A DNA stretch of 55,267 nucleotides, counting the filler, from Catajapyx aquilonaris (lineage: Eukaryota), in the NCBI GenBank assembly GCA_000934665.2. It is 2 parts of 2 records of this genome, joined end to end, with 100 filler letters (N's around TTAATTAATTAA, not from the genome) between each part and the next. Parts side by side here need not be neighbours in the genome. Positions count along the whole stretch, not along the records: positions 27,670 to 55,267 come from JYFJ02005042.1; 1 more part is not named here. The stretch is one strand, 5' to 3'. The position numbers and the translations under genes were made by a program. Position 1 is the first letter of the stretch. Each line of letters begins with the position of its first letter. Below are positions 27,670 to 55,267 of this stretch, in pieces. The notes beneath the pieces were generated by a model. It saw nothing but the letters and a program-made list of their open reading frames with translations, was not told the DNA's origin and ran no database searches.

Positions 27670-27879
27670 TGAAACAAGGCAAGTGATGTAAGACCGCAAC
27701 ACAGTCATGTAATCCAGGGCTGGCTTTTTAAAAATATATTACACCAAAAATTGACCAGATAACGGATACCTGGGATTAACACTTCCCCAAAAACAACTTA
27801 AAGTATGGTGGTACATCATTCATTAAGCCAGCAGGCTGCAGGACCAGCCTTTTCAGTCATACACTGTGCAACAAGATTT

Positions 27880-28040
27880 CTCTCCATTTCCAATCACATT
27901 TACACTTTCTTCATACATTTGGCATATATTATTATCCTCCACAGTTTGCCGTGTATTTCCAAGTCCCATAGTTTTATCATGAGTCCACTGAGTCGAAAGC
28001 TGTCTGGAGGTTTTCCCCCTCTTCTTACTGAGTCTATGCT
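27880..28040 (-). pseudogene. Non-LTR (LINE) reverse transcriptase fragment
   Basis: DSVRR..GLMIKLWDLEIHGKLWRII resembles the segment after the AFD motif of LINE RTs. Confidence 0.55.
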
Positions 28041-28211
28041 GCGCCACAATATGCATTGTACTTCTTCCATTCCTAAAATTTGCCTGTCCCTCGTGGTCAG
28101 TGGGTTACATATTGGGTCTCCTGACATCCACGAACTTTTCCTATAGGCTACACATTTCTACAATGCTAAATTATTACCATACTTACTACGCCCATTTATG
28201 TACACTACATT

Positions 28212-28538
28212 CTACAACACTCCCCTGCGCTTCACATTGTCAGTTCTACTCGTAGTCGCTACCACAGCTGCTTTCTTAATCTTTTCCCAAGAGTTAATGG
28301 TTGATTCCGGAAGCGAATTTAAATGCGCCCGCGCTTCACCGGCTAACTTCAACTGCAGGACTTTTATTTTTTTGCCTTCTTCTACACCTGCCAATTCAGC
28401 TGCTATTTCCATGTCTGCGATAAAATCCCTAATGTCCTGGCCGCAATTCCTTCCGCTATAACTGGCCACTTTGGTCAGCACCCCCATGTTCAGCGTCCTG
28501 ATGTTTACCACCTGTGGGTCATTACCCGCTTCTGGCAT
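28212..28538 (-). pseudogene. Gypsy-like Gag N-terminal fragment
   Basis: SYSGRNCGQDIRDFIADMEIAAELAG...KIKVLQLKLAGEARAHL...SWEKIK, a retrotransposon capsid N-terminal pattern. Confidence 0.75.
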
Positions 28539-29379
28539 GTTGAACTTTGAGTAGGATAACCCATCCCAATTGTACCAGTAATTTTGGTCAAAATATCGCC
28601 TGATGTCTCCGTAATATGACTCCTACCTTAATCGCACCTTTTAGTGAATCAGTATAACCCTATCCTACCGACTGCTGCTTATCTCCTTTGTTAAAGCAGC
28701 ACTTGTAAAAATCTTCACGGAGGACATCATCAATCTCATCTTGTTCAAGGTCATTAACTTATGTGTTTCCGCTTCATTGAAAAGCCTCCCCGGAAGCCTA
28801 TTCCTCTCATGGATTAGAAATTTTCCCTTTTCGTTAGCTGTTTTTTTTTTCCCCTTTGACCCTATCCAGAAAGATGGCACACAACAAGTGTTGCTTAAAT
28901 TTCCCTAACAATCCCTTTTTTGTCACCTGAGTGGGAGACCCATTATTTGGTACCTGAGTCCATAGAGCTCCTGAGCTCTGTTGGCTCCCTTGAGAGTCGT
29001 GGTCCGTCTCTCCCTGCCATCCACAGGCGGTTGGGGTGATATAGGTGTAGGAATGGGGATGGGGATGAGGATAAGGGGTTGAGGATGTGGTGCGTAGGTC
29101 AGGTGCCGGACCCCACCTTTGACAAACAATCCAAAAACTCGACCTTAGCGATTGTCCTGCCCATGTCACTCGACAAAGGAAAGGGAAAACCGGAGAGAGT
29201 TGTCAGTTTGCAGCCAGCAAGTTTCATGGAAACCACTTATTTAAAGAGCAATGAAAAACATAACAACAAAGACCTATAGTACTGTACAACACATACCAAG
29301 TACATTTCCTGTGTCCCTGCATTCATTAACATCTTGCTCAATTGTGGAGCACAATGACAAAGCGGCCCAGCTCCACAAA

Positions 29380-29705
29380 GGAAAAAACCTTTCCCTTTTC
29401 GTAAATACCTTAGTTTTTCAGATCAATGTGTCATGGTGATTCACATGGGTTGGCACGTCAAAACTCTGGAATCAATGTTCAGAATTCCCTTAAATAATTA
29501 AAATGTACTTGGATCTGGATCACTTTGATCAATAAAGGGTCACTCCATGTGATGTTGGTAAAGTCTGACATCCTAATAAATTATTAATAAGTTCCATCAA
29601 TTCACTTGTTGCTACAGCATTCAAGTTACGCCTTATGCTTATGGCATACTGTAGAATCATGCACAGTCCATCACCATATGTTGTTCCATTTCCTGCAACC
29701 AGTGA
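29380..29705 (-). pseudogene. EnSpm/CMC transposase N-terminal fragment
   Basis: GDGLCMILQYAISIRRNLNAVATSELMELINNLLGCQTLPTS resembles the animal EnSpm N-terminal RHxLT..L..LL.LIN...LP motif. Confidence 0.55.
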
Positions 29706-29759
29706 CCTCATGAAGTCTTCTTTTTTGAAGAAAGTGGAGGAAATGTTCTGTTAAGTGTG

Positions 29760-30060
29760 CTGAACAACATACTAAAAGTCATGGAGTGCGCTGCTGCTTT
29801 CATTGCTTCCTTTTCCTGCATAATCCTCTGTCCAGGTGTAAACATGAGGATCACCCTGTTGAGTAAGTGGGTGCATTTCCACTGTGACTGTGAAATTATA
29901 CATGTACAGCTGGCGGCTGTAGAATGCTGCTTGGTCAGGAATTTTGGGCAATGCTTGATTTTGTTGGCAGTCAAAGACGAACACTTTCATGCCTCCCTGA
30001 CGTTTGCGAAGGAGAGTGTAGAATGCTGATGCCCTCACCTTGTGCGTTCGCAAGGCAGCC
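29760..30060 (-). pseudogene. Sola-like transposase fragment
   Basis: FDCQQNQALPKIPDQAAFYSRQLYMYNFTV...YTWTEDYAGKGSNE (first catalytic D region). Confidence 0.75.
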
Positions 30061-30145
30061 ATGAAAGGCAACTCAAAGCTCGCAAAACATAACGAAAAAA
30101 ATAAATCACACACCTAATTCTTGGTGTGGCCACCCTGTGCGTTAA

Positions 30146-30530
30146 TCACCGCCTGGAACGGTCCGGGAGGGACTCCACAAGTCCCCGCATAAACCCTGGC
30201 CGGCGCTCCATGCTCCCCCACACATCGAGGACATGGGCCCGGAGAGCATCAGGGATGCGCTCGTGTCTGACATCCCACTCGCGCACCATTGAGGCCCAGA
30301 CGTCATCGATCGGGTTGAGGTCAGGGGAGCAGGGCGGCCAGTAGGTCAGCAGAGTTATATGTGGGTGGTCCTCCAGCCAATCCTTCGTCGTCCGGGCGGT
30401 ATGGATGCTGGCATTGTCTTGCATGTAGACAAAAGGAGCACCCTCGCCGAACAGGGCGCTGGTGAGTGGCACCAGCACCTCCTCCAGGATGTAGCAGTAT
30501 TCCTCCGCGTTCATCCTGGTGGTAGCTGGA
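30146..30530 (-). pseudogene. Tc1-like DDE transposase C-terminal half
   Basis: MNAEEYCYILEE...YMQDNASIH...WPPCSPDLNPIDDVW...LVESLPDR. Confidence 0.9.
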
Positions 30531-30559
30531 ATGAAAGGGGGCACTGGTCCCCATATCGA

Positions 30560-30660
30560 AAATGCCTGCAAAGGAAATTTTGTTCGGGTACTCCTCAAGA
30601 GTGTCAGTTGGTGCCGACTTAATCATATGAACAACTGCAGATCCATCAAGAATGACCCAT
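30560..30660 (-). pseudogene. Academ-like transposase fragment
   Basis: VILDGSAVVHMIKSAPTDTLEEY matches the IIDG.A.V.M....TF.EY motif of Academ-type proteins. Confidence 0.55.
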
Positions 30661-30684
30661 GTTTTTTTACATACATGACAAATG

Positions 30685-30835
30685 TTCAATGTGCCCTCCT
30701 TTAGATATGCGGCACACATCTAGCCGTAGTCCATTTCGCCCCGCACGCGAGCAAGCATGTCACGGTCAATCATTGTGAGTTTGTGACAGCCCCGGTGATG
30801 CGGTGGCGAAGTTCCTGGAAATTTGCAGGGGGTTG
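30685..30835 (-). pseudogene. Mariner/Tc3-like transposase C-terminus
   Basis: PANFQELRHRI...IDRDMLARV..EMDY / LDVCRISKGGHIEHL (frameshifted), the typical terminal GGHIEHL motif. Confidence 0.8.
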
Positions 30836-30984: not shown

Positions 30985-31195
30985 GTTTTTCTGTACACCA
31001 GCATGAGGTTGCGCCACTTTTTATCACACTCACTGTCAGCTCCAGTCTATCCATTCACATTTTGATCCTTACACATTTTTTTCCGCAACAATGTTCCACA
31101 CCTTACCTTTCGGTCTGGGCTTCTTGAACTCAGCATCCATGTCTTGCCTTGTTGAAATCAACGCCTTGGTGAGTGTGTCTGACCATGTAACTGTT
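30985..31195 (-). pseudogene. Myb/SANT trihelix domain fragment (Harbinger accessory ORF type)
   Basis: VTWSDTLTKALISTRQDMDAEFKKPRPKGKVWNIVAEK then, frameshifted, CDKKWRNLMLVYRK. Confidence 0.75.
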
Positions 31196-31574
31196 CCAAC
31201 AGCAAAGCGTATTAATGTGAACGTGTTATAATCCTGTAATTTATCAGTGCAAATGACACCACTACCTTTTTCGGCTGATCCTGGTGGTTTCTTCTCGGCT
31301 TGGCCCTCCTCTCCTACCATGACGATTTTATGCACATCTGCGCAATCTGGGAGGCCCATCCGAGGTCCCATGCCCTGGAAGAACGTGGGCAGGAAGCCAG
31401 GCACTGAAATGTTGACGATGGGTGTTAAGAGTACTCGTCTGGGGGAAGTTTTAACCCAGCTTACCTGTCGAAATCGCCTTAACGGGTGCTGGACTCCATG
31501 GCGAGGGTGAACTTGATGTCCTCGCCGTAGGTGAAGCTGACTTCCTGCGACATATGGCATTGACATTGATACAG

Positions 31575-31866
31575 CTGCTGCAGTTGTTTCAGCAGCAGCG
31601 GTTTTGAATGCCATGTACTCTGCAAGGATTAAAATATAACTGTACAATGTGCGCCAGCTTTAATAATCATGTAAGTTCATTCGAGTTCATCAATTGGCTT
31701 ATGCAATGCGTTCCAGAAGTGTTATCCAGTTTAGACATGGAAAGCCTACATTTTGTGTGTAAAATGAGATTCATCGGAAATAAATTTTACACATTACTAT
31801 GTTACATACGCCCAAGTTTTTCTTTTGAAGAGGTGAATGTGCTTGTAACTGCCACCTTACCAACTA
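31575..31866. repeat. About 290-bp dispersed direct repeat, copy 1 (copy 2 at about 40319-40620)
   Basis: GCCATGTACTCTGCAAGGATTAAAATATAACTGTACAA...GTTTTTCTTTTGAAGAGGTGAAT is shared with scattered mismatches; it includes a minus-strand splice acceptor (TCCTTGCAG|AGTAC). Confidence 0.9.
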
Positions 31867-31929
31867 TATAATAAAATCCAACATACGATACAAAGTGTAT
31901 ACAAAGACATTTACATGTCCCCAAAGGTG

Positions 31930-33260
31930 ATGGGAGTAGGGTAAAACGGGGTACTTAGTCAGAAATGTCCTATAAATCCAAACTTATACATAGTACATAT
32001 ATCATTTTTTATGCGTACAGTTGTTGGTTATCCTGCTTTACAATACACTGAATAAGACCTTGTAAAGTTTTGTATATCAACGAGGAAAAAAAAAATTCAC
32101 CGAGGAGGCAAAGTACCCCGTTTTACCCTGCCGGTAGGGTAAAACGGGGTACACATATTACAAGGAAAATGCGAAGTAAGAAGCCTAAGAAATTGGACGG
32201 TTTTCTTTTAATCCAGGTTTATTTCCTTCTGCATCTTAAGTGCACAGTTCACATGTGTAATCTTCACATTCCTCCTCTACCCCTGCACATTCATCATGTG
32301 CCCAACCATGACACTGAATGCACATCACCCACCCTTCCGCCCCTTTGGAATTTGAGAATACGTCCCCACATACAATACAGGACACGTCGTCGCCATCATC
32401 TGAATCCCTTTCCTTGGTGCTCTCTAGTTTGCTTTTCTTACTGCGACCCTTTTTCGAAGCTCTTTTTTGCTGTTTCTCCTCATCCACGTTGAGCTTCCTT
32501 TTGGGTGTTTTCCTCTGCGCCAGTGATTCCTTCAGTTCATTCTTGTAAGGCGAATCGGTAAGTACAGCTGTCTTTCCCCGTCGTTTGTCGTTGGTATTTT
32601 TTTTTTTTTTTTTTGCTGCTCTCTCCGCCCTGGACATCTTCAAAATATCCTGCGGTGATATGTTGAAAGAGGATGATGTGCTGGCATTGCTGTTGTCCTT
32701 CATAACATTGAGCTGTGATGGAATTTCCACTGCACTTCCGGAGGGGAGATTGGCGTCAGGAACTTCTTCAGCAAGTTTGCTGTTCATCTCATCTCTTTCG
32801 GTTGTTTCTGCCGCTTGAAACATCCATTCTGGGAAGACATCAGTATCCAGAGGAAATATTCCAGTTTTCCTGAATCCACTGACAGCAGTCTCAATTGACG
32901 CTGCCTTCATAAAAGCTTCCATAGAGTTGTCCAATATGTTGGATGGAAATCATCCGTCCAGGATGTGAACGCATCCATTTCCTAGCCGCCTCTGCGTAGT
33001 AACCGCCAAGGGGGGCCATGAACGAAACATCAAGCGGTTGCAACCTGTGTGTACAATGGGGCGGGAAGCATAACATAACTACATGGTTATCTCTGGCCAT
33101 GTCAAGGAGCTTGAGATTTTTTGTATGCGTGGAATGGCCGTCCAACAGAAGGACTGGCTTTTCTTCTGTTGGCTTTGCAAAGTCAACAAAGCGCCTGAAC
33201 CACTTCAAAGAAATCTCTTTTTGCATCCATCCAGATGGATGGTATATTGAAAGTTGCATC
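31930..33260 (-). mobile_element. pogo-like transposon 3' half (DDE_1 transposase + PHD finger, subterminal repeats)
   Basis: SGWMQKE...LLLDGHSTH...FPPHCTHRLQPLDVSFMAPL; SGFRKTGIFP; C-terminal CIVC...WVMCIQCHGWAHDEC...YTCELC; GGGTAAAACGGGGTAC repeats near 31939, 32112 (inverted) and 32136. Confidence 0.9.
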
Positions 33261-33269
33261 TTTCAGATG

Positions 33270-34010
33270 AATCTACCGAAAAACGAGATGAATAGGGACC
33301 GCTGAGTTAGTGAAAAATCCAGTTTTGTAGCGTGGGTCAGGGTATGCCGCATAAGCCATTGGCCCCTCAGCATGCCCGACATCTCGAAAGCGCACAGAGA
33401 GGCCAGTAATTAGTTCCTTGACGACTCTCTTAGTCAGCATTTGGTAGTCCACTTGATCTTCCATTCTGTCTTGTGGCGCGTGGCATCTAGAAGTGACTTG
33501 AGTCATCATGATAACTCGGATCCAGTCAAGTACTGCTCCCCACTCATCTCCGTGGTTGCTTCCTGAAATGGAGTTAGGACTTCCACTAGATCTCTGCATA
33601 TTAGCAGTTCCTCTTGGACAAAGTCGGTAGTGTTGGATTCAGAAGGATAGCTGTGGTCCGTATGTGCTCCTCGATTTGAACGAATCGTTCCGGCATAATT
33701 ATGTAGCGTTGAATTCCACCTTGTTTCTACGTCTTTTATTGGGGTCAGTGGCGTTGTGAGTCCTTCTGGTAGCTGGGCCTGCTTCAGTTTTTCAAGGGCT
33801 TTGCGACATTTTTTTTGGAAAAATGTCACCATAGCTGACGCCTTCGTCACCATTGATACCTCCTCAATAGCCCTCGTCACTATTAGGTTCAAAGTGTGCG
33901 CATAACAACCTAAATGATTCCATTCCAGATTTGCCACACCCCCAACAATTTTTGACGCATTATCCGTCACGACCAGCTACTCTTTTCTCTTTTTTCAATG
34001 CCCCACTCTA
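33270..34010 (-). pseudogene. hAT (Ac/ZBED-type) transposase fragment
   Basis: TDNASKI...GCYAHTLNLIV...KDVETRWNST...LTPFQEATTEMSGEQY and DPRYK. Confidence 0.9.
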
Positions 34011-34409
34011 CGACAACCTTCACCATCATGTTTCCCCACTAGCAATGGTGATGGTGGTGATGATTTCCAACAATATTTGTAAACTGGAACTCACTAGCCA
34101 GCTAACTTGCCCACTAGTTAACTCACTCATTAAGTAACTAACATGCAAGGGATGACGGTGGTGGTGATGATGAAGAATTCTAGCAATGTTTGTAAACTGA
34201 ACTAACTCCACACCAACACTTCACGCACTAAGTAGCAGAGTTTCCTCCTGGCCTTCGACCTGCCTGTTGGACTGCCGGAATCTGGCGTCTTCTCTCCATT
34301 ACGTAGCTCCTCCAGATCACTCTGCGGCTGCAGAATCCACAATGGGTCGCGAACCTTCAAGGAGAATGTGTCTGGGATCGGCCAGTTCCGGAAGGACCTT
34401 GCCCACGGA

Positions 34410-35260
34410 TATTTGCATAACCTTGCCCACGGATATTTGCAACATCCAGCCCTAATGCTTCAAGTTCATGTAGAAGGGTGTGGTATAAATTTTGACCAGT
34501 GCTACTTTCCACCACTAACAACTTGATGAAATGTTCATATACTCCTGCTGGAGCATTTGATTGTACACCATCAGCTCATTTGCTCCTGATGACGTATGTC
34601 AGGAGTGCAGTCGAGAATTACTGCAAAATACTTTGCAGCCTTGATTCGCAAAACTATTTCCTGTAGAGCAGCTTGGCCCATTATATTAATTAGTTCATTC
34701 TGGATGTTTTTTTCCTAAATAATAATCATGAATTTCCTCATTCTGGATTTTTCGCAGATGCTCCTGCATTACTGGATCAAACTTTCCTAACTCGATAACA
34801 CCAAGGAATTTCCATTGTGTGATGTTCCTATGTGTTCCGCCGATCCCCGGAATGGCAAGTTAAGGCTAAAGTTGTGGTTGAGGGTAAATTTCCTGTTCAG
34901 TTTACATGGGAGGTACTCCATGTTGGGTATCCAGTACTTGTGCATGTACATGCCCGTCTGTATCTTTCTGCCAGGAACTGTACAGTGGCTACCAATCGCT
35001 TAAAAACTTGATGCCAGCGTTAAGCTTCTTGGCTGATTTGTTTTTCTGCTAATTCATCAATGGCTGTTCCAGCAGATAATCTTTGCTGCAGTTCACGGCA
35101 ACTGAGCATAGCTTGCAAATGCTTTTTGGAGTTCTCATGCTCAGCTAGTCTTGTATGAATGTTCAGCCAGTTTGCAAGTGCACTAGCTGTGGCATCAAAA
35201 AGCTTGAAGTTGTCACCGGAGCAGGTGAAGCATATTAAAACCAGTGGGTCCATTGTCCTT
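34410..35260 (-). pseudogene. hAT (ZMYM1/DUF4371-type) transposase fragment
   Basis: RLAEHENSKKH; RGSAEHIGTSHNGNFLG; GKFDPVMQEHL...NIQNELINIM...AKYFAVILDCTPD; LDVANIRGQGY. Confidence 0.85.
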
Positions 35261-35479
35261 TGATTGATTCTGCCTTGAAACGTGCGTTACAAACAAAATT
35301 CAGGAAGGGATAGGTGAGATGGGTAAAGAGTGATAGGTCGGGAGTAACGACCAGCCCCCAGGATATGCTCCCGGGGAACTGGCCCGGAGCATACGTGGGC
35401 GGTTGGTAAAATAGTATGGTGAGAACAATGCATGATGGTTACTAAAGAAGGTGAAACAGGATTGACGTACTAAACAGGT

Positions 35480-35826
35480 CTCGGAGCCGTTGATGATGTC
35501 CAGTACGTTCTCCTGATTTGGGGGCAGGCACGAAAGGAAGAGGAAAAGCCTTTCGAGGCCGGGGCTCCTCCGAACAATGTTTTTGAGGATGTCGGGCCTC
35601 CTCAACCTTATGGCGGACATGTCCAATTGGCACAGGGTGTGAGAAGAAACGGCATCTAGTAACCTGTCTGTATCATCGCGGCACATTGAACAGGTGATGT
35701 GCAATCGCTTCAGCTGGATCATCCTCGACAGCACGTCGGCCGCAGCCTCGGCGCCGGGTATTTACACGCTCTGCCACAGCGACGGGTCCTGGGTCACCAC
35801 CCTCCACCGTTTACACACCAGGGCCT
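35480..35826 (-). pseudogene. F-box/LRR (FBXL-like) gene fragment
   Basis: ALVCKRWRVVTQDPSLWQSV* (end of an F-box) followed in frame by LRR-like LKRLHI, LCQLDM, SPGLERLFL. Confidence 0.7.
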
Positions 35827-36084
35827 AAGAACTGGATGCCCGTATTGTGTTATTCGCTGTCATGTTGTTGCTTACCTGGGATTTCTCCTGTCTTCCGTAT
35901 TCTTTCTAGTTCGGTTTTTGTAAGAACAAATTTCTTATTTTGCTTCTCCGATGTAACAGTCATTATAATGGTATCATACGGGATGCTGTCCTTATATGAC
36001 CATTTGTACCTTTCGGTACTGATATTTTCAAACCATTGTATCTTGGCATGGTTTCCTTTTCTTCAGAGTATTTTTGCGAGATAA

Positions 36085-36225
36085 ATGAAGCAATCTGAGA
36101 ATTTGTGGATATACTGGCGATAGTATGAAGCCAGGCCAAGGAAAGTTCTGACCTCTTTCACCGTTTTCGGAACTGGAGAAGCAGTGACACTGATAATATT
36201 GTCAGGGTGGATGATGCCCTGTTGA
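36085..36225 (-). pseudogene. Gypsy RT/connection fragment
   Basis: PVPKTVKEVRTFLGLASYYRQYIHKFS. Confidence 0.85.
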
Positions 36226-37980
36226 CTCGCACTTGATCTCGATAAGAGGTGTGACCTTGAGATGGGCAGTTTGAAGTCTTTGGAAAACAGTTTCCAGACG
36301 TTGGAGATGTTCAGAAACAGAAGAAGAGAAAATTGCTGTGTCTCACAATCACACGGATATAGCGCTGCTAGATAGATGGGACAAGTGTCTCAGTGTGAGT
36401 TGGTACCACTGCCTTGGAACTTCCTCCAAGTACTGCTATCTTCAACAAATTAAGATATTGTCGTCAGATTCGCACCTCCACCTCCTCCAAGTACTAGGGG
36501 AAGTCTGCCCGAAAGGCCCCTGGCAGTCCCCACCCCCCCTCTTACGTTCAAAGGCCAGACTCTGTACCAGGCCCGAGATACACAAAGAACCTTTAACATT
36601 CGCATTTCCCTGGTGCCCTATGTTCTCTCATTGGCAGACTGTCTCAGTTTCTTTTTCCCAGGTACTGTAGCAGTGACTCAGTTATCTTTCCCTCTAACGG
36701 GCTTTTTTTTTTTGGCAAATGATGCTGATGTGTGAAGATAGGTCCGAAGACCGAGGCAGGGTTCCACCTATAAATGGAAGTGAACCAAATGATAATGATG
36801 TGACATTTACTGTTATAGTTAATAGCTACATTTAATGCACGTCACATACCTCATGATGACATTTCTCACAGCACAAGCCCTGTCTCGCCACCAACTATCA
36901 CCGCACCATGCACTCAAACGAACATGAGGCCTCCGCCGAATAACTTACGTCAACAGCGCGAGACACATACACTGGATGCGATACGTCCACACATTGTTAA
37001 TCAAGTCACCCATACTGACACCCGTACAATGAACAATCAATGTCGGCCATCTTAAATGTGTAGGCTACTCTTTAAGTCACATGAGAGTCTAGTAAATATA
37101 ATAATAATTTAAAATAGGAAATAGGGTTAAGGGTGATTGTACAAGCAGCATTTTTATGAATGTGCAAGTAGCTAGATTACTTTACATAGGTACATTATGG
37201 TAACATTATGCTAATATTTGCAGGTCTGAAGCGAAATCTGTGTATTGGAGATGCTGACACAGGACACAGGACAATGTCATGAATTTTGACTTGACTGGTT
37301 TATGGAACAGAGTCAGCTGTAAAACGATAGGCTCACAGTTGTTATTCTATATTGCATGATATCCAGTCGAGTCATGGTAGGGGTTTCTCTACTCGTTAAG
37401 AGATCGACGACTTCCTTCGTAGCACAATGTCCTCGTTTCTTGCTTGCTCTTTGCAGTGGACGCAGTGGTTGTCGCTAATGTTTTGCTTTTCCTTTTGCTG
37501 ATTGGATCGTGCAGCGATACTCCTTGTTACTTTGTAAAAACCTTGTTGTAAATATCCGGCAATGCAGATGTTTAAGATAACTGTCGTATGCAATTTACAG
37601 TAAAATCTGATAACTGTATGAGACTAGAATTATTTTGCATAACGATACCTCTTTTGTGGTAGTCTATACCGAGAGACAGTTTATAAGTTGACAGTCTCAT
37701 CAGAGCTTCACCAACATTCCATACATTAGGGCCAAGTTCTTGGAGATGTGGTATGATTTGGTTTGGATGAGGTTCCACTATATACAAGGGTTGTGGTGCA
37801 GCCAAACTACGGTCCATATCCTCGATCTTGTTTGCGTAATGAAAATATTTCTGAAACAGGAACATGACAAGTTTTTCAGGCTGAGAACTAGTTAGGTTAT
37901 GAATGTGTCTGGGATCGGCCAGTTCCGGAAGGACGCAATCCATGTAAAATCGAGTCAGCTTGGGCTCCCTTTTCTTTTGC

Positions 37981-38920: not shown

Positions 38921-38922
38921 TG

Positions 38923-43562: not shown

Positions 43563-43769
43563 CTAAGTGAGCTTGTCACCCATTTACAGCCCACTAGCAG
43601 AGTTCTGGCGAGACTCATCCAGAAGGAGTTTTCACCACCCCTCACCTGCTTACAGTGTTCATCGGTAGGTACCACTCCGCCTGTCACCTCAATAACACCC
43701 GTCACTATAGAAGGGATACCGAAACCTGCATATTTAGTTGGGGGTCCAGGATTGCTCTCTACCCCAGCT

Positions 43770-44300: not shown

Positions 44301-44789
44301 TTAGGGCATCATACTTTTTGACATAGTCATCATAAACATAGATCCATAAATCCCCCCTGGGCACCAATTCTACCATGCCAGAACTTTGGTCGGGGGGAAA
44401 ACTATACTATGCATCTACCTTGTAGTTGTAAAGAGATCCAGCGTTTGAAGGTGCCTGCATAATGTTTCCCGTCCACCGAACCGGCACAGTTAGGGAAGTT
44501 CCAGAACCTCCAAAAATCGTGGGCAATGGCCTCGTCCCCTTTATCATCAGGTTCCTGCCAAAAAATACGTGATAACCTTCAATATGTTTTCTAGGAATAT
44601 ACCGGTATACTGAGGATAACGTGCCATATGGCTCAAGTAACCCTTCATGTAGAGGGGTTGTAAGGTGTCCCAAATCAGTGGGGCCATGAAGTGCACAATT
44701 GTTGGAACACCTTGATTTCGTAATCTGTTGTGACCCACCCACCATTTCTTTGGGTAACCCAGACCCATCCCAGAATTGACTTGACTGAT

Positions 44790-44930
44790 TCAATTTCACG
44801 TATTCAGCAACAGAAAATGACATGGTGACAAAATTGAAATTCTTCATCTTTGCCACTGCATTTTTTCCTTCAAGCCTCATTGTCCAATGATGTTTCGTTG
44901 GGCCGTGTTTTTCCATTTGCTCCACAACAT
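44790..44930 (-). pseudogene. EnSpm/CMC transposase C-terminal fragment
   Basis: HGPTKHHWTMRLEGKNAVAK..NF.. matches the GPL..W.MRFE.KH motif. Confidence 0.7.
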
Positions 44931-45029
44931 GGGGTTAGGTTTTCACTGCCACACAGTAATGCACCTTTGAAAGGTGAATTGTTTTTTAAACCCCTACTCT
45001 GTCCCTCCATTGTGACAAAAGAGAGCCGA

Positions 45030-45690
45030 AGTGTCAAACACTTCTGGAGTAATGATCAAGCGGACAGTCCTGCCTTTCTTTCCTGTGATTTGGACCAGTT
45101 TCATCATTTCACATAATTTTCGTTCTAAATCTGATGGGGCTGAACGAAACAATGATGTGTTGCCTTCATCCCACTTCGGAGTGGCTTTTTATTGAAGGTT
45201 ATAATTCTGGTTAGGGTGACTTCTGCCAGCTCTGTCCAAGACTTTTTGCTTGGATCTGCAATCAATCGTGACTTTGAATTTTCAATCTGATCCAGCTGAT
45301 ATTTCACTAGTTTTTCTAGGTCGTCAGGTGCAGGAAGAACTTCCATTTTGTTTTGCTTCCTCTTACTTTGATAAATGAATCAGGGGACGTCTGGGATCCA
45401 ATGGTAATTAAATTACTTCATTTCTGTTTAACTTGTATTGCTGCATATGAATGTCACAACCCCATTGCACCTTACAGCTGTTTCGCGTTGTACGCTCATC
45501 AGAGGTGCTATACCATAAGGGCTGAAACAATACATGTACATTACAATATTGCAAGAGCATTTCATATTGCTATGAGGTTTAGTCGCGAGTCTCCTACTAC
45601 AATTTCGAACACAGTGTCGTCCTTCATTTTGCTAATGATCTCGTCCAAAAATCTCGTGCTTAAGTCTGGGCAGCTGGAATGATATAGTAG
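45030..45690 (-). pseudogene. Crypton-like tyrosine recombinase fragments
   Basis: IISKMKDDTVFEIV.GD; LPAPDDLEKL...WTELAEVTLTRIITFNKK; MKLVQITGKKGRTVRLIIT. Confidence 0.65.
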
Positions 45691-45729
45691 TGTCACCAAA
45701 TGTGAACACAAATAAATACCACAAATGGG

Positions 45730-46400
45730 TTCGTTTCAAGTCCTGAGTTTATTCGAGCGGTAAATAGGGCAAGGTAAAAGAGGAGAGAGGGATAGTCAGG
45801 TGTAGGTGAGTTAGGTGTTAGATCCATACAATCGTAACAGGATCAATAGTGGGACAGGTGACCTCCATTAAAGGAGGGTGGCACAGCTGTCCATGACACA
45901 ATAGAGGGATATTCTCCCTCCACGCATCCGATCAGTCCAAGGGGTCAAGCCCCGAGGTAAAGGCCTCGAGCGTAGGCAGCTGGTGGTTTATATACAACTT
46001 CAGGATCAGTCACAATGCATGGGGGCGCTCTGGCTGCTCGTTGCGGCTCCGTGTGCGGGACGCTTAGATGTGCCGGGGTGTCGAGCCGGGGAGTGGCGTC
46101 TCCCAGACGATTCAGCTGCACAGGCGTGGTCCTCTGGCCTCCTCCCAGGGTGTCTGAGGCAACGGCAGCACTTGGGCAACGTGCGCTTGATGGAAATGTT
46201 GTGGATCCTCTGAAGGTGGCGTTTCAGAAGGGCCTTGGCTGCTCCGAAGAGACGGCTGGTGGAGGTGAAGTCACAACCCTCCTCTGGACAACGAGTGGGG
46301 TTAGGAAGGGGGATGAACAGAGTCAGGGAACCCATGTGACTTATTATGAGCTGACGGGAGGGGGGCCCACGGTCAGGGGGGCCAGGAGGCGACTGGACAG
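45730..46400 (-). mobile_element. R2-superfamily (Utopia/NeSL-like) non-LTR remnant: N-terminal zinc finger joined to a 3' UTR-like tail
   Basis: LFIPLPNPTRCPEEGC...LLKRHLQRIH...CCRC...HAC, then pyrimidine-rich non-coding sequence with AATAAA near 45750. Confidence 0.55.
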
Positions 46401-46959
46401 TTGGGTATGGTCTCTCCCCGCTCGCAAGAGACTGTGGAGGCGACGGGTCAATATGCGGAGAACATGGGGACGATCCCGAGGAGTCGAGAGCGTCTGTGGC
46501 GGGTGAAGGTGCGACGCCGCCACCCTCCGCTGCTGGGCTGGCTGACTCCGGACCCGACGACTGCGCTGGACCCAACAGGCCGGGTGACCCCAGTACAGCG
46601 GAGGGGAGCAGGCAGAGGTGGGTGTCATGGTCAGGGCCCGAGGAAGTTGAAAGAGACTGATGTCGATGAGTTGTCCAGGTCGGAGAAACTTGCTGTCCTC
46701 CAGGTGCGGGTTGTATGCAGAAGAGGGGCAGGAGGCATGCCGGCTGGCCACGACGCACAGTAGGACGAATACGGAAAAACGCGAACGAATATCATATCGC
46801 CTGAACCAAGCCATAATTGTAGTGTGAAATAGTCTTCCTATATGTTTTCCATGACGCTGAATCCGATTTTGAGGTCGATTAGGTGGTAATTTTAAAAGCT
46901 ACAAAGTTGTGAATAAGGTACTGTTTGTTATTTCATGAATAAGAAATGCATTTTATATT

Positions 46960-47640
46960 TCAATCTTCTTCAGAGTCAGGCCCAGTGTTATTTGTTGTAA
47001 GTAAACACAATACATCCCCATCAAGAATTTGCCCCCCTCCCCCCTCCCGTTCGTCTGCATAAGAGCTAAGCTTTGGGTCTGAGCTGAGAAGTCTGTGAAA
47101 CAGGTCTTCATTCAAGTTCAACCGAGAACTTTTCCGCGTGTGGTGTTCGCGATACTGCCTCACGACTTTGTTCTTCGCCTCCTGTGCCTCCTCCGATAGT
47201 TCCCCTATTGGCAACAAAGCGGATTAGATGACGGCTGACCCATGAATGAGGATTTTATGGACGGTGGTTGGCATGAAATACCAGCCATACAGCTCAACAT
47301 ATTTTTTGGCAGTAGCCAGGCAATACTGGTCAAATTCTTCGACCTTGATTTGACATCCGCTGTTCAGAGCCTTCAAAATGACACCAAATCTTCGAATAAG
47401 TTCTTCATCTATTCCTGAGTAAGAAAGTTTTGCAATTAGGAAAATGGCATTGCCTGTAGTGCATTCCCGTTCAGACTTACCAGTTATTTCGGATGCTACT
47501 TTGGCATCAGAAAAAAAGTTCCTGGCTGTATTGCCATTGTTGGATGTGCCATAACCTGGTATTGGCACATCCACAATCAGGCCCATTTCATCTCGAAATT
47601 TCTATTGGATTTCTTTTTTCCGGGCTTCAAAACTCTCTCT
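46960..47640 (-). pseudogene. Transib transposase C-terminal fragment with a retained 66-bp intron (47415-47480)
   Basis: GLIVDVP..GYGTSNNGNTARNFF...EITG|IDEELIRRF...YGWYFMPTTVHKILIHG; LPIGELSEEAQEAKNK...HHTRKSSR...DLFHRLL.SDP. Confidence 0.92.
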
Positions 47641-48089
47641 GTCACCATTGGAAACCTATCATGAGCACAAAAGTGACTAAATAAAGCAATCAACTTTAAT
47701 ATCTCCTGTTCAGCGATTGTAGGTGCTTGCGCGAGCGCCCCTCCCCCCCCCCCTCACATTCTCTCTCCTCCGCTCCTCCCCGACCGGGAAATTTGGCCAC
47801 CTCAAATTATAATAATTAGTGTTTAGTGTTTGGCAGATTTACTATTGCATTTACTCACCTGCTTAGTTTCTGTTCACACTTGTCCCATGACTGTCATCAC
47901 TCGCACCACCTGCACTGCTCATTGATGCCGACTGATCTCCATCTAGGACTTATAGGTGCAGAATATGTTCATCTTCATCTCGATGACTAACAGCAACAAC
48001 TTCCTCCCGTCTGGAACAGAAATAGGGATTGAGACACCAGAATATGGTGACCGACACATAATTTCATTTTCATCATCGCCCCCGGAGGG

Positions 48090-48380
48090 GTCCGGTACCG
48101 GGTCTCTTGGATAGTTTCCTTTTTTGGCCAAAATACCCAGTTGTGTCTGGAAGTGTATACGAGCTCCAAGACTTGGTGAAATACATACCCACAAGTTGTT
48201 GAGTGACAGCCAATAAAAAACAGATAGAGCAGAAAATGTTACTCCTAATCGCATTCTCATTACGTAAGAACAACAACTTATTTTCTCTGGTCATGCCATG
48301 CGTGTCTTTGAGGGATGAAGAAATGAGTGTCAATAATGTGGTGAACGTGACAAGTGTAAAGTCACTGCCTATTGGAAATG
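48090..48380 (-). pseudogene. ISL2EU/IS5-like (HTH_Tnp_4-type) transposase fragment
   Basis: MTRENKLLFL / MRMRLGVTFSALSVF / WVFWPKKETIQET. Confidence 0.7.
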
Positions 48381-50350
48381 TGTAATAAAATTGTCAAATA
48401 TTCCTCGATTTTTATGAAACAAGTTTTATTCTGTACCTTACAATGGGAGAATTTAAACTCCCGCCAGTATGCAACTCCACGGCCCCAGGTGGCAGCAGCA
48501 GTCCCGATACCAGTAAATATGGCGCAGCTGGCGTCCCGTTTGCTGGTGTCGGATTCCTCGCACCCTTTCTTGGGATAGCCCCTCCCACTCCGACGTCATG
48601 ACAGTTAGCTCCTCCCCCTATGACGTCAGGGCATTGCACTGTAGCAGGTGAGTGATAGCCAAGGAACGCAGGCTCATCTTCGGGGCGCATAAAGTCACCA
48701 TTGCCGCCATTTAGAGGCATACATCATGCAGGAGGCATGTGGCACCATGGGGAACTCAACCCATCAGGTGAGACCCAGAGTAATCCCAGTGCAGTGTATA
48801 AACCAGGAACTCACTGGTGAGAACTTGCTTCCTACAGCTGCCAGCGTCGGCCAGACTCCAGGCCATGAGCCCACTCCAGCTACTCCAGCCAAAATATGTA
48901 ATAGATTATGCCCTTCAGATCGGGTGTAAGTTTAACATATTGAGAGAAAAACCTAGGCAATGGAAGTATAGCAGGTACTCTGACATCTAGTTACTTTACA
49001 TACATACTTACATACGTGCCCCCTGCCCTTTCAACGGATAACCTCATATATAATCCAATGCAAATGCAAATGAAAGACAACTCAGTGTATATATTTCACC
49101 TTAACTCGTTTACAAATAATCTCAGCAAAGCAAATGAAGTGTACTTCCAGCGAGGCGGAAAATATCAAAATTCTCCTTACTATACCTTAACACAGAGCTT
49201 AACACAGAGTATGAAGAAGAAAAATCAACAACTTTTTCTGATGATTAAGGACATAGATCAATTTATGCTCCTGATATTAGAACTCCACATGGAGGAACCA
49301 GACACTGGGGAAGACTGCTCACTTCACTTTGCAAAGAATTTGTAATACAGGTTAGTTACTTTGCTGAGTGAGTCTTCCCCAGTGCCTGTCCCTTACTCAC
49401 ACAAAAGGCGAGGTCATGCGGGGCTTTCCTCTTTCTGGGAAAACCCTGGGAGGTCACTCTTTGGGAGTACCCATGCTCGGCTGTGTAGCTGGATGCCGGT
49501 GGGCGCCCAGCTCCCACAGCTCTGCGACCTCCCAGGGTTCTCTGCCCCACCATCCTTCTCCTGCTGATTGCGGTTGGCTGCACATGTATGTACTTTGAAT
49601 GCTTCTTGGCGTGCCCTCCACCTGAATAGCAACCAAAACTTGCTAATGCTGAGGCTTTGGCAGCTGTTGTTTTCAATGATTTGTACCGCTGCACAAATTT
49701 CCTCGCTGACGGAGACAGCTGATCATAATCCTTGGCAAGCGTGCACCGTAAGTCATTCACTTTTTCATCAAGATCATCTAAATCCTCTTGCAACTTATCA
49801 TCTGGGGGCAGTATTTCTGGGACCCCATGAGTGGGTGACAGACAGTGTTCTTGACCTGCAGTCTGGGAAGACGACGAGGTGGAAGGCATCATCTCCACAT
49901 CACCACTCTGTGGTGCATTTTCCAAACTGTCATACCAGCCTGCTTGTACATCCTCATTGCCTACAGCTATGAAATGATAAACTAGCTTTTCCCTTGGGTG
50001 GGTGGGGAGAAATTGCATCGAAAATATGTTTGCATGCTTATATACTGCATACTGGTGGTTACAAGCCCCTCCATTATAGCCTATTGGGCAGCTACAACTC
50101 CAAGATTGCACGTCTACAGAATACTCTGTACCAGTCTGCAAATTTTGTACTTTGTACATGTCTGTACCAGATATTTTGGAAGAATTCTACCATACCTAGT
50201 TGGTCATGATATAAAAATTATGTGGCAAGTTATGTGTTGCATAAGGGTTGGCTGATACTCTCACATAAATAGTGCCAATTCAAAGATCATGGCAGTCAGT
50301 TGAATATTGGAACTTGACCGTGACGTAATAGTTTCGCTTACCAACTCCTA

Positions 50351-51417
50351 GGGCCAGTTGCACCAACCTCAGTATATCTTAGAACCTCGGGTATATCAAG
50401 AATTGCCATAGCAATCATTGTTGGTCAACAATGATTGCTATGGCAATTCTTGATATACCCGAGGTTCTAAGATATACTGAGGTCGGTGCCAAAGAGCTTA
50501 ATACTAGGAAGAGTGGAAAAAACAGCTGGTAGCATAGCAACCGTGTCGCCAATCGACTGACCTGCCACCTGGCGAGTCGACAGCGAAACTCGATACTGTA
50601 TTGTACAATACGGTAGATCGAGGCAGTGCCGGAAATATGGCAATAAAAGCCCCAGAGGTTGGAAATAAGTCATAAGTACTAGTATACTCCCGTCAAATTG
50701 CCGACAAAACACGTTGCAGAAGACCTGTGAATAAAAAAACCATCACGAAAAGCAAATATTATTTGCCAGAAGTTTATTGATTTCCACTACAATCCCACAC
50801 TCTGCTCTATACAATACACACCAAGGTACACACTGATAATGATGCTGAACATGGTCACATGACAGGAAGATATACCCCCCGCTGCCATCTTGTCGCAAGT
50901 GGCGGGACGGGCTTGTTCTTCTTCCCGTGAACTCGAGAACCTTGGAGGCCCCTTTGGTAACGAAAAGAATGTGATCCGAGACCTTGTGCGCGAACAGCAG
51001 TAGTAGCACGCGGCACCCGAACGTCTGCGCCATACTATGCCGGCAAAGGAACTTGTTCAATTTCGAAATTCGAACGTGATTTCTAAGCAACGAGGGGATT
51101 ATTTGTATTGTTAGGTGCAGGGTGGCCAGCTGCGCAGAATATCAGTTTCGGGTCCAATATTAGTTCCTTACCCCGTACGACCTCATATTGGTCAGTTTTT
51201 AGATTTATAACTCTTAAATTATGTGCCTCTTGATATTAAATCAACACAGTTTATTGAAATTCATCTCGACAGCACTCGACGGTGCCGCCTAGTGGCGCCG
51301 CGTAGTGAGCCATCAGCAAAACACGTTGGCCAAACAACTGGCCAAAAAGTGGCGACGCTTGGAAACCGTTTTTTCCACTCTTCCTAGTATAAGCTCTTTG
51401 GTCGGTGCAACTGGCCC
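50351..51417. mobile_element. Palindromic PIF/Harbinger MITE interrupted by a P-like element
   Basis: CTA|GGGCCAGTTGCACC ... GGTGCAACTGGCCC|CTA (3-bp TSD); near-perfect hairpin centred at about 50424. Confidence 0.88.
50490..51400 (-). mobile_element. Non-autonomous P-element-like transposon, 911 bp
   Basis: TIR CAAAGAGCTT(A)ATACTAGGAAGAGTGGAAAAAAC; 8-bp TSD GTCGGTGC (50482-50489, 51401-51408); THAP-start-like remnant CYYCC...ITFFSLPK on the minus strand. Confidence 0.85.
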
Positions 51418-52409
51418 CTAGTCAACGAAAATCTGCCAAATGCACCAAACCTCCCACTTTTCAAGTCTCCATGGAGATGCCCTCATGCAACAATAGAACA
51501 CTGTCTACTCTGATTGTTGTGTGAGGTCATTATATTTTCATGGGAATAGAAAAAGTGGGAGGTTCCAGAGGTATGTTCAGCAGATTTCCATTGACTTGGA
51601 GTTGGTAAGCGAAAATATTATGCCACAGTCAAGTCCAGCTGGGTCATCTTTATTGTGTGAGGGCATCTCCATGGAAACTTGAAAAGTGAGATATTGTTAA
51701 GAGGAGCCGTGAGAGGAGTGTGTTGAGCAATTTAGGCTCATTTTTGGAAGCTGAAACAAAAGGCATTAAAATTCCTCATAAAAATAAGTTACCCCAAGTA
51801 TGCTAGTTTAACTCAGTGAACCTGCATTCCCCTGGGTTTCCATAGCAAACTCACAAACAGACCAACTCACAAACTTCCTGAAATATAGATATAGATCTCT
51901 GCATGCTGCATAAATCATGGAATCATCTTACTGTGCCTTGGTTGGTTTGCCGATGGTTATTCGCAATTGTGCCTGGCAGTTTGTATGTTTCTTGGATGCA
52001 CTCTTCCCAGGCTTAGGCCGCGTGTTATGCTGGCACCGATAGCCAGCCTGGAATGGAAATAAATTTTGATGAAATTAAGAAATTCAGGCGAAGAAGATGG
52101 CCTGATTTGATAACATGAAAATGCTATTAAGAGAAGATTGCTTGGGTCATTATGTAGAACGTTCGTGTTGATGGACCACAGTGGTCCTCCAATGTCCACC
52201 AAAAGGAAACATTGGCAATTTTTCTTTTCATTCAGTGATTAATCACTAGCATTGTACAGTGCTAGACATTAATGGTAGCGACATAGGCGGCAGAAGGGCA
52301 CATAGAAGTGATAAAGTTTGATCCATGCAAATGAGAAATGGTAAGCCCTGGGTGAAGTCAACAGTGGGCTCAATCGTTCAAAACGTTATTGTACCAATTA
52401 AGGTCCTGC

Positions 52410-52935
52410 ACTACTGTGCATGGGTTGACTCAAAAGTCATTGCGTGTATTTAAAATTAAAAATGGTAACATACAGAGGTGACCTTTACTACTTTTTGAAG
52501 CTCTGGGCGATTAAATTTGCTCTGGAATGTGGATGCCACCCAGATCTCAAGAAGCGCCAATATACACAGGGGGATCATGACCTGCCACATCCCACCATCG
52601 CCCTAAGACGACCTGAGCCTGACTTGATAGGAGCTGTTGGAAGTTGCTTGCAGTGCTTCTGTGTTGTCCATCTTCAAGAGTCCTGCATGCAGCATTCAAG
52701 AGCTCCAATCATGTAAGGCTCGGGGCATCTTAGGGTGATGGTGCGGTGGAGGGTTCATAATCCCCTTTCATATACTGGTCCTGCTCATGATCTCTGTGCC
52801 ATCTACTGTATATACCAGGTGAAATTGTAATCACAGACACATCAAATCATAGTAAAGGTCATCTCTCTATATGCTACTATTTTTTAAATTTAAAAATGTG
52901 CACAATAACATGTAAATCAACCCATGTATACAGTA
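52410..52935. repeat. About 520-bp imperfect palindrome inside a MULE intron
   Basis: CATGGGTTGA...GGTGACCTTTACTA pairs with TAGTAAAGGTCATC...TCAACCCATG; CACCATCGCCCTAAGA pairs with TCTTAGGGTGATGGTG. Confidence 0.8.
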
Positions 52936-54519
52936 TATTGCTATTACAACATTTTATGTTACACTGATGATAAGTATACATACTTTGTAGATTCTTCTCG
53001 GAGTATCTTCCGGAAAAACTCTATAAATGCGCCATGTGGTGCATGACTTTTGCTGGAATTCAGCAAGCCATGCATCTGCATCTTCTCGCGAGAAGACATT
53101 CACTTTGAGAGTTGTCTCGAACTGTGGCTCCTGACCAAAATTCTCCAGCAAGAGAAAATCTTTAACTACATATTTGAAGTTAGGCAGCACCTTCTGTAAA
53201 TTAAAATACATGTTGCCATTATGTTGATGATGATGTATTTATCCTGTCAGTGTATTATGATTTGGATTATTCCTCACCGCCAGTTGCTGAGGAATATCAA
53301 TCCCAGTAGGTGCCCCTAAATGTTGTGTGTTGGCTGGAGTAGCTGGAGTGGGCTCTTGGCCTGGAGTCTGGCCGATGCTGGCAGCTGTAGGAAGCAAGTT
53401 TTCACCAGTGAGTTCCTAGTTTATACAGTGGGATTACTCTGGGTCTCACCTGGGTTGAGTTGTGTGTTGGCTGGAGTAGCTGGAGTGGGCTGTTGGCCTG
53501 GAGTCTGGCCGATGCTGGGAGCTGTAGGAAGCAATAAGTTCTCACCAGTGAGTTCCTAGTTTGGATTACCCTAGATTCCTAGTTGGGATTACTATGGGTC
53601 TCACCTGGGTTCAGTTCCCCATCGTGTCCCATGCCTTCCACATCGGCTGATGATGCCCCTAAATGTGTAGTGTTGGCTGGAACCTCAACTGGAACTGCAA
53701 CCTCAACCTGCTCAACCTGGTTTATACACTGCACTGGGATTACTCTGATGGGTCTCACCTGACTCACTGCAACTCCTCAACCTGGTTTATACACTGGTTT
53801 ATACAACAATAACAACAACATCATGACATTTCCCTATGAGGGGTAGTCAGCAATGAAGGGAGACGCAAGCTAACCCAACATATGAACTAAATTAAAACTT
53901 GTGAAAATAAACCTAAATACAACCTGTCCCACCCCCCACCCCATGCCCACCTCAGACATCACCTTATCCTCAGACATATTTACCTATTTACCCACCTGGT
54001 TTATACACTGCACTGGGATTACTCTGGGTCTTACCTGACTCACTGCAACCTCAACCTGTTCAACCTAGCTGCAAATCACCTGCTACAGTGCAAGGCTGTG
54101 ACGTCACAAGGCTGACGTCATAGGGGGAGGAGCTAACTTCCATGACGTCGGAGTGGGAGGGGATATCCCACGAAAGGGTGCGAGGAATCGTAAACCGGCG
54201 TCCCGTTTTGAAGTCGGGGGTCGGTGGTTAAAGTGCAGAGATGGTGGCGATACATACACGCGGTAGGAATCCAATGTTGCATGATGGGATGCCTCCGTCG
54301 CTACTGGTCTGACGTCGTGTTGGTGATCCAACAGGGAAGGAAACGGGGTTAGCATAGATAAAGGAAAGTGGGGCTAAGTGGGAGAGAATATCACAAGAGA
54401 CAGAGTTAACAATAGGTGCATACGACCGGTGTCTCATCCGACGTAGTAACAGATGGAGATAGTACATAATAAAATGCGTGGGGCACAACACCTTTCCCGA
54501 GAGGGTAAGGTCACAGTAC

Positions 54520-54590
54520 CTTTCTTGATTGCCACTCTGAAAAAATCCAGGACTGCCTTCCTCTCTTCTGGGTCCCAATTAGTTCGCTCT
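54520..54590 (-). pseudogene. C-terminal Myb-like exon of a Crypton-like protein
   Basis: RTNWDPEERKAVLDFFRVAIKK flanked by TTTTAG| and |GTAC splice sites. Confidence 0.45.
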
Positions 54591-54730
54591 AAAAATTAAA
54601 TATTTTCCTCAGTTCTCAAATACCACATTTGTAAAGGACGTATTTGACTAGTACCTTTTGTGGTGACCCTGCCACTTGGAGGACTCGGAGAATGTTGCTG
54701 GGGCTTTTCTGTAATGAATTTCATTTTGGA

Positions 54731-55069
54731 TTATTGGCATTCGTGTCCTGCGAATAGTTTAAGAGTGGCGTGCAAATACAGCTGCACTACGACCACAGGC
54801 ATCGCCATAGTGTTTTTCATACCGGGACTGTCTCCTTGCATGTGTTTCTGGACATGCCTCTGAAACCCCCCGGAAGTGTTCAGGGAGAGGACAGCAGACG
54901 CACACCTCGTCTGAAATGAGGTGCTCTTGGAGTACTTAATTCGCTTGCCACTTTGAAATTTGGCAGTGATATTGTTGAGGTCCTCGCACATATTGTTGGA
55001 TTCGGTTCGAACGAGGCTGTTGGCCTCGTTCGCTAGGTTTTGGACGATCGCCTGCATGACCGTCCACAT
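54731..55069 (-). pseudogene. Second Kolobok-like transposase fragment
   Basis: LANEANSLV..ESNNMCEDLNNITAKFQSGKRIKYSKSTSFQTRCASAVLSLNT...SPG; homologous to, but diverged from, 43770-43900. Confidence 0.75.
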
Positions 55070-55267
55070 GCCGCACCGGCCGCACTCTTCAAACTCGACA
55101 ACAACCTAGCGAACGACATTTTATCTAATATATAAATAAGGTATCAGGCACTTATTACAAATGCATTACAATAAGTGTGGGAAAGAATTATGATATTGTC
55201 TCGTGATCATTTATTCTGCTATTGTATGTACAGTATACAGTTGTGTACCCGTACATGTTGCACCATT

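Follow-up and report, generated by a model that had tools for sequence, protein, structure and literature searches.

In arthropods, PIWI-interacting RNA (piRNA) clusters consist of fragmented transposable elements (TEs) transcribed in one direction as long RNAs, a layout given as the norm by Hearn and Little (2022, PMC9175491). Candidate clusters resembling Drosophila flamenco, termed flam-like, were found by strand-specific TE coverage alone, as described in passages of van Lopik et al. (2023, PMC10643416), in which the two candidate species with public small-RNA data both had piRNAs from one strand only, and in which the model is that selection favours antisense insertions once a promoter exists. 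Mosquito core piRNA clusters, according to excerpts of a further study (10.1101/2022.08.22.504762), are mostly uni-strand and carry viral fragments inserted antisense to the transcript of the cluster; read-through of a gene located upstream drives them, and they are enriched in endogenous viral elements. Here, a window of 55,267 nucleotides from Catajapyx aquilonaris, i.e. the whole stretch of DNA analysed, was examined for such a locus. Its second contig (JYFJ02005042.1, positions 27670-55267, hereafter contig B), the whole of which is the subject of this work, carries a chain of TE-protein snippets that all read on the minus strand, and is a candidate uni-strand piRNA source locus. The first contig (contig A, 1-27569) served as the control for open reading frame (ORF) polarity and TE content. 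The two are separated at 27570-27669 by a linker, a six-frame stop spacer of the form N44-TTAATTAATTAA-N44 (89 N in the window in total), and as they are unrelated contigs joined by this linker, nothing can be concluded across it.

The strand bias of contig B is real. In a six-frame Pfam scan of the contig with stops translated as X and E≤0.01, eight families were matched at eight places on the minus strand (PAZ, DDE_3, DDE_1, YqaJ, F-box-like, F-box, Mutator and OTU) and none on the plus strand. At the ORF level, 170 stop-to-stop ORFs of at least 60 amino acids from both strands were searched, and 10 minus-strand ORFs had a Pfam match, comprising the six-frame families without F-box-like, together with weak SWIM, Myb/SANT and leucine-rich repeat (LRR) matches. 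The sole plus-strand ORF with a match (40864-41070, DAZAP2) was sub-threshold (E 0.0084; 17.4 bits, cut-off 25) and lies within a high-copy repeat. A lenient rerun at E≤1, on the minus strand of contig B only, gained two noise hits and nothing else. The polarity is equally present in a database-free count, with 14 minus-strand versus 2 plus-strand ORFs of at least 150 amino acids, both of the latter overlying minus-strand ORFs, and 5 versus 0 at the length of at least 200 amino acids; in contig A, the ORFs of at least 150 amino acids were one versus one. When 150 relatives of the snippet at 29.6-30.2 kb were aligned by tblastn to both strands of the whole window, all 152 matches fell on the minus strand, as did 55 of 55 matches obtained with 52 hAT relatives. 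Tools thus support 13 separate homology segments on the minus strand, of which 9 are strong and 4 weak, and no credible one on the plus strand, for which the two-sided binomial probability is 0.004 (9:0) or 0.0002 (13:0).

A previous sequence-only reading of this contig had claimed that all recognisable pieces lie on the minus strand and none on the plus strand, and had named many plus-strand TE ORF hits in a systematic search as the result that would speak against it. That search was run and yielded no credible plus-strand segment, so the claim stands. Its estimate of about 28 pieces from at least 14 groups is plausible, with only about half verified, namely the 9 strong and 4 weak segments supported by tools; about six more pieces were recognised by eye alone. 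The description of the pieces as mostly DNA transposons holds for those that could be named. In contig A, where 150 of the 155 ORFs of at least 60 amino acids were scanned, credible TE matches were confined to two ORFs, a Myb/SANT piece and a Tc1 helix-turn-helix (HTH) piece; compared with the 10 matched ORFs, contig B is therefore enriched in TE proteins as well as polarised. Both matches of contig A (3704-4042, Myb/SANT-like; 4652-4993, Tc1 HTH) are on the minus strand, and they are too few to conclude from.

The chain spans about 21 kb, and the families named in it are Tc1, pogo, hAT, Mutator and a DUF7869-bearing family, together with some retroelement and host-like pieces. The features of contig B are as follows, with terminal inverted repeat abbreviated as TIR and target-site duplication as TSD.

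27670-48541, minus strand: chain of decayed TE-protein snippets, truncated at both ends and co-oriented, plus a few host-like ones (Pfam, ORF lengths, inverted-repeat search, word depth)
29556-30158, minus strand: internal snippet from a repeated protein family that is widespread in animals and carries DUF7869 in its full-length members (HMMER, tblastn)
30149-30622, minus strand: Tc1/mariner transposase fragment that reaches the C-terminus and matches positions 57-135 of the 146 in the DDE_3 profile (Pfam E 9.5e-14 for the ORF, 1.5e-14 in six frames at nt 30269-30517)
31072-31659, minus strand: 196-amino-acid ORF with a weak Myb/SANT-like match (Myb_DNA-bind_4, E 0.0059, below cut-off)
32239-33262, minus strand: pogo-type transposase fragment that extends from mid DDE_1 through the C-terminal tail (DDE_1 E 7e-16; six-frame nt 32963-33241; library protein P0010 aligns at 32476-33226)
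33294-33991, minus strand: internal snippet of a hAT transposase, about amino acids 250-450 of 450-680, without BED finger and dimerisation domain (homologue search and tblastn)
35303-35824, minus strand: F-box-like and LRR fragment, host-gene-like, in few copies (F-box-like E 1.8e-4 at nt 35762-35824; LRR E 8.9e-4; depth about 120-140)
36066-36389, minus strand: Ty3/gypsy-type reverse transcriptase (RT)/RNase H linker fragment (Ty3 RT 4ol8, E 0.0057, weak; motif at 36120-36140 by eye)
37958-38512, minus strand: YqaJ-like exonuclease fragment (Pfam E 5.7e-7; six-frame nt 38249-38497; exonuclease 3syy E 0.0044)
38884-39069, minus strand: decayed snippet of a PIWI-clade PAZ domain, 38-40 amino acids matched in a 62-amino-acid ORF (PAZ E 1.7e-6; six-frame nt 38926-39045)
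40630-40874, plus strand: high-copy short repeat (depth about 2500-4000; same-orientation copy at 51159-51403, 91%)
41473-42156, minus strand: 228-amino-acid ORF from a repeated family of C2H2-containing arthropod proteins (Atlas feature score of 0.96 to mostly arthropod clusters, a lead only)
42045-43562, minus strand: the sole long open frame, 506 amino acids with no early Met, with an OTU cysteine-protease domain (OTU E 2.6e-7, nt 42690-43052)
44020-44319, minus strand: C-terminal fragment of a Mutator-like transposase, profile positions 263-357 of 357 (six-frame E 2.8e-10; ORF E 5.2e-4)
44410-44934, minus strand: 175-amino-acid ORF with a PIF/Harbinger-like motif at 44480-44497 (by eye only)
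48542-54196, minus strand: TIR-bounded DNA transposon of 5,655 bp, Mutator-superfamily-like, polymorphic in the sample, with nested high-copy repeats (inverted arms, TSD, empty site)
48530-48541 (left, plus strand) and 54197-54208 (right): 12-bp direct repeat GGCGTCCCGTTT, the TSD (exact; 2 matches, 0 expected)

The identity of the first snippet was obtained with the read-through frame 27672-30719 of the minus strand (1016 amino acids) as HMMER query against 1.84 billion representatives, which gave 467 matches at E≤1e-3; the best 150 of the 467 all fell on one part of the query, and DUF7869 (PF25273) was present in 10 of the 12 long matches scanned. According to tblastn, the snippet at 29556-30158 covers only about amino acids 200-360 of proteins of 500-620 amino acids, apart from two matches of P0010, which fell on the pogo piece. 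This library protein (public, predicted, 594 amino acids) is itself a chain, in which a pogo piece reaching from mid DDE_1 to the tail precedes a co-oriented DUF7869-family piece; it may represent a similar row of snippets in another genome, annotated as a gene. For the hAT snippet, ORF 33509-33976 returned 52 ZBED/hAT matches (best E 1.7e-22) with the hAT dimerisation (PF05699) and BED (PF02892) families present in the matches, and the best relatives were from insects. The closest structures to the PAZ snippet were the PIWIL2 PAZ domain (3o7x, E 4.4e-7) and then PIWIL1, Piwi-A and Siwi, the best chain of the Ago clade having an E-value of 0.49.

Several other assignments are our own. ORF 41473-42156 is putatively the N-terminal region of a DNA polymerase B (PolB) of the Polinton type, a reading made by eye and unconfirmed by tools; its search against PDB returned spurious engineered-repeat matches only. 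Just downstream of the OTU domain an F-box is located in another frame (42101-42196, E 5.1e-5), and upstream of the OTU frame, again in another frame, there is presumably a 2A-like motif (43742-43759), noted by eye and unconfirmed by tools. In the OTU frame, which is single-copy, the catalytic Cys and His motifs were seen by eye; no relative at E≤1e-3 was found among 7608 candidates of a word search, and there was no match in PDB. The motif at 44480-44497 is presumably Harbinger-like, a name given by eye and not confirmed by tools; ORF 44410-44934 had no Pfam family, and no relatives in a homologue search. By eye, and likewise unconfirmed by tools, three further minus-strand pieces were recognised, which we take to be gag-like (about 28.3 kb), a ZMYM/DUF4371-like hAT piece (about 34.7 kb) and a repeated family without a name (about 47.5 kb). 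The gag-like ORF (28215-28622) had neither a Pfam family nor a meaningful PDB match, and the Atlas comparison of ORF 46009-46791 was uninformative. Scans for Rfam families and tRNAs found none.

Each piece represents an inner portion of its protein, truncated at either side, and the pieces adjoin one another: only about 30 bp separate the end of the hAT piece (33294) from the start of the pogo piece (33262), and there is no gap between the Tc1 piece, which extends to 30149, and the DUF7869-family piece, which begins at 30158. The inverted-repeat search (pairs of at least 18 nt) found 36 pairs, and among the 25 listed, none flanked coding snippets in 27.7-48.5 kb and nearly all were situated in 48.5-55.1 kb. 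The previous reading had most pieces lacking their own TIRs, long terminal repeats (LTRs) or TSDs; as regards TIRs and TSDs, this is borne out for 27.7-48.5 kb, as far as the 25 of 36 pairs go, and does not extend to 48542-54196, which is a complete TIR and TSD insertion. Self-BLAST revealed only two pairs of direct repeats in the chain (31572-31857 with 40317-40594, and 40630-40874 with 51159-51403) in addition to one 24-bp tandem repeat, and on these grounds a regular array with repeats between the snippets was rejected.

Four DNA runs from one sample contained 83-87% of the sampled words of 41200-51199, and three of these runs were used for word depth over 31200-51199 at k=31. Depth was about 25-45 in most of the bins that hold snippets. 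It was near 130 at 35.2-35.9 kb, showed a slight increase (40-87) in a small number of further bins, e.g. at 31.2-31.9 kb, and rose to hundreds to thousands at 40.5-41.2, 47.9-49.2 and 49.9-51.2 kb. At a depth of 25-45 the chain is unique sequence and not a multicopy element, i.e. it is single-copy at k=31, broken by a few high-copy short repeats. A fifth run (X5), of unknown kind, held the repeats and a few short bits only. Contigs of 1-2.5 kb in three runs bridge several snippet junctions, e.g. at 31811-34300 (hAT/pogo), 35409-37930 and 44506-46783; they come from the same sample as the assembly's likely source and are not independent proof of contiguity. In addition, four contig forms skip 74-314 bp of the chain (34369>34444, 39622>39751, 43144>43459 and 47148>47254), and we read these as deletion variants or close paralogues. 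The skip of 314 bp (43144>43459) is inside the OTU frame, with the shorter form at about a third of the depth, and no TIR or TSD was seen around two of the four skips.

At the right end of the contig, 48542-54196 is an ordinary, recent and still polymorphic TIR and TSD insertion. Its arms of about 350 bp (48542-48892 versus 53330-54199) are complementary in blocks of 91-95%, and two runs each have a contig whose sequence passes from 48541 directly into that of 54209-54238, which is the empty-site allele. Mutator-superfamily elements have long TIRs and TSDs of about 9-11 bp; the element has TIRs and a TSD of this kind, the TSD of 12 bp being slightly longer. It contains a 276-amino-acid minus-strand ORF (49359-50186) with a weak SWIM match (E 0.0069, below cut-off), and no MULE (Mutator-like element) catalytic domain was found within 48542-54196. 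Word depth within the element rises to about 5600. Two very high-copy structures (depth in the thousands) are inside it, a near-perfect short palindrome at 50360-50489 (64-nt arms, 98%) and a diverged foldback of about 500 bp at 52419-52926, and both are probably nested miniature inverted-repeat transposable elements (MITEs).

Repeats were also observed in contig A. At 1003-1604 there is a tandem array with a period of about 70 bp (identity of 78-93% between self-matches at an offset of 70), and another, shorter array occupies 5344-5651; an inverted pair of about 340 bp (9951-10956, 92%) and a 600-bp self-complementary foldback (13198-13800, 91%) are probably MITE or foldback elements.

Contig B has the DNA-level features of a uni-strand cluster, being rich in TE fragments and gene-poor (at least 9 strong plus 4 weak segments in 27.6 kb, the sole long open frame being the OTU ORF, which is TE-like) and strongly co-oriented. 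A dense, gene-poor, single-copy and fully co-oriented chain of unrelated TE families is the DNA signature of a one-strand piRNA source locus, and with moderate confidence we regard contig B as probably belonging to such a uni-directional locus, of a type described as usual in arthropods. The candidate uni-strand piRNA cluster of the sequence-only reading is a fair interpretation in that the layout fits; it is the DNA layout that was seen, and the function is predicted. In the proposed mechanism, a promoter to the left of the contig would drive one long plus-strand transcript, antisense to the mRNAs of all transposons in the chain. Cleavage of this transcript would yield piRNAs of about 24-32 nt with a 1U bias, and these, once loaded into PIWI proteins, would guide the silencing of active copies elsewhere. 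The chain would grow via ordinary transposition into the locus and be trimmed by deletions, and selection would keep those insertions with the sense strand opposite to the precursor, giving the one-way layout.

Several points weigh against a piRNA source locus. The plus strand is assumed and not observed as the precursor strand, in a locus known from its DNA layout alone. Depletion of poly(A) hexamers, used as a proxy for the transcribed strand, gave no signal: AATAAA and ATTAAA together were found 31 times on the plus strand versus about 19 expected and 18 times on the minus strand versus about 20 (second-order Markov expectation over 27670-55267; AATAAA 17 versus 11.7 and ATTAAA 14 versus 7.5 on the plus strand, 13 versus 10.0 and 5 versus 10.5, respectively, on the minus strand), so that the plus strand is not depleted and the hexamers are, if anything, over-represented there. 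Neither a promoter nor a cluster boundary was present inside contig B, the presumed 5′ end being outside it. The host-like snippets (the PIWI PAZ and two F-box pieces) are not expected from transposon insertion alone, and several family names (gag-like, Harbinger-like, ZMYM-like, PolB-like) were given by eye only. Finally, the assembly may be misjoined at any of the high-copy repeats (40.5-41.2, 47.9-48.5 and 49.9-51.2 kb), and the supporting contigs are from the assembly's own sample.

The alternative that survives best is an ordinary transposon graveyard without a piRNA role, situated in a long host transcription unit (giant intron, read-through tail or long non-coding RNA) or in heterochromatin, where the co-orientation would result from selection against splice and poly(A) signals on the transcribed strand. 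The F-box/LRR and PAZ pieces on the same strand, the undepleted plus-strand hexamers, by which the direction of the transcript is not fixed, and the predicted status of piRNA production at a locus seen as layout are all compatible with such a unit. We nevertheless consider it unlikely, if the most serious of the rivals. Retroelements in introns have a moderate orientation bias, and this is far exceeded by 9 strong segments (13 with the weak ones) versus 0, short DNA-transposon pieces included; furthermore, there is no exon-like Pfam match on the plus strand, and the host-like pieces on the minus strand are decayed.

Another possibility is that short coding pieces were copied in one orientation, by Helitron or Pack-type capture or by template switching of a reverse transcriptase between mRNAs, and the sequence-only reading had indeed proposed an array built by capture of short fragments. 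In Helitron and Pack-MULE arrays, short fragments of unrelated genes are lined up without their own ends, and frequently all face the same way; such arrays are mobile and multicopy, have defined termini, and capture host genes. The pieces of contig B resemble them in being short, co-oriented, internal to their ORFs and without own ends, in abutting within 0-30 bp, in having no flanking inverted repeats in 27.7-48.5 kb among the pairs listed, in including host-gene snippets, and in all being in mutual mRNA sense. Unlike such arrays, the chain is single-copy and not amplified, it consists mainly of transposon genes with non-coding high-copy repeats between the pieces, and no Helitron Rep/helicase or other capture machinery was detected in the six-frame Pfam scan (Helitron_like_N and PIF1 had no match in contig B; no search aimed at termini was made). 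The case in which the whole block is one multicopy Helitron or cargo element, named beforehand as a ground for abandoning the cluster proposal, was checked and is ruled out by the single-copy depth over most of 31.2-48.5 kb and by the lack of machinery in six frames, and the proposal survives it. The only datable event is a normal TIR and TSD insertion with an empty-site allele, and the segregating length variants show ongoing trimming. In our reading the chain therefore arose through normal insertion and deletion and not by capture of short pieces, since that insertion and those variants point to growth by the former and trimming by the latter, and since repeated insertion and deletion yields a chain of doubly truncated, abutting pieces such as this. 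One-orientation copying is improbable, and the capture proposal is not supported.

In a wider version of the piRNA proposal, the locus would be an antisense archive of host genes and transposons alike, in which the PAZ snippet would give rise to piRNAs directed at the effector mRNA of the very same pathway as a built-in negative feedback, and a part of the chain would have arrived as short copies of coding sequence only. The PAZ and F-box/LRR snippets share the orientation of the transposon pieces, and some of the piRNAs, should the locus produce any, would be antisense to PIWI mRNA; this archive as a whole appears very improbable to us. Least credible of all is a chimeric assembly of unrelated repeats, with the chain not being one locus: three high-copy repeats do interrupt the contig, and the support consists of short contigs (1-2.5 kb), with no spanning long read, in runs all from one sample that is possibly the assembly's own, but these contigs bridge snippet junctions in three runs, depth is even across the unique parts, and the left block alone (27.7-40.5 kb) contains 9 segments versus 0.

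If small RNAs confirm the uni-directional piRNA source locus, contig B would contribute to the map of such loci in a little-studied arthropod with a mainly DNA-transposon load, and the gain and trimming of locus entries could be watched in the length variants and in the polymorphic insertion and its empty site. The layout by itself is already described for arthropods, and the general picture is unchanged. Specific to contig B are the polymorphic insertion with an empty site, which shows how entries arrive, and the PIWI-clade PAZ snippet co-oriented with transposon pieces.

Among the described systems, mosquito core clusters differ from contig B, in which neither an upstream gene nor a viral fragment is visible. 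The uni-directional clusters of Daphnia magna (PMC9175491) were defined from small-RNA reads, whereas contig B matches them in DNA layout only; the likeness consists of a long stretch of one polarity made up of fragmented and nested transposon remains. With flamenco and the flam-like clusters of Drosophila, as portrayed in passages of the corresponding study (PMC10643416), contig B shares a strong strand bias of TE fragments over tens of kilobases. Those clusters are enriched in LTR/Gypsy elements, and Gypsy alone drives their bias (PMC10643416), whereas contig B has one weak Ty3-type RT piece and mostly DNA transposons. As Gypsy enrichment carrying the bias is absent, contig B is not classed as flam-like and would only work like such a locus. 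The contrast to flamenco drawn previously, with DNA transposons instead of LTR elements, is real, and a DNA-transposon content is expected if the locus follows the transposon fauna of its own host.

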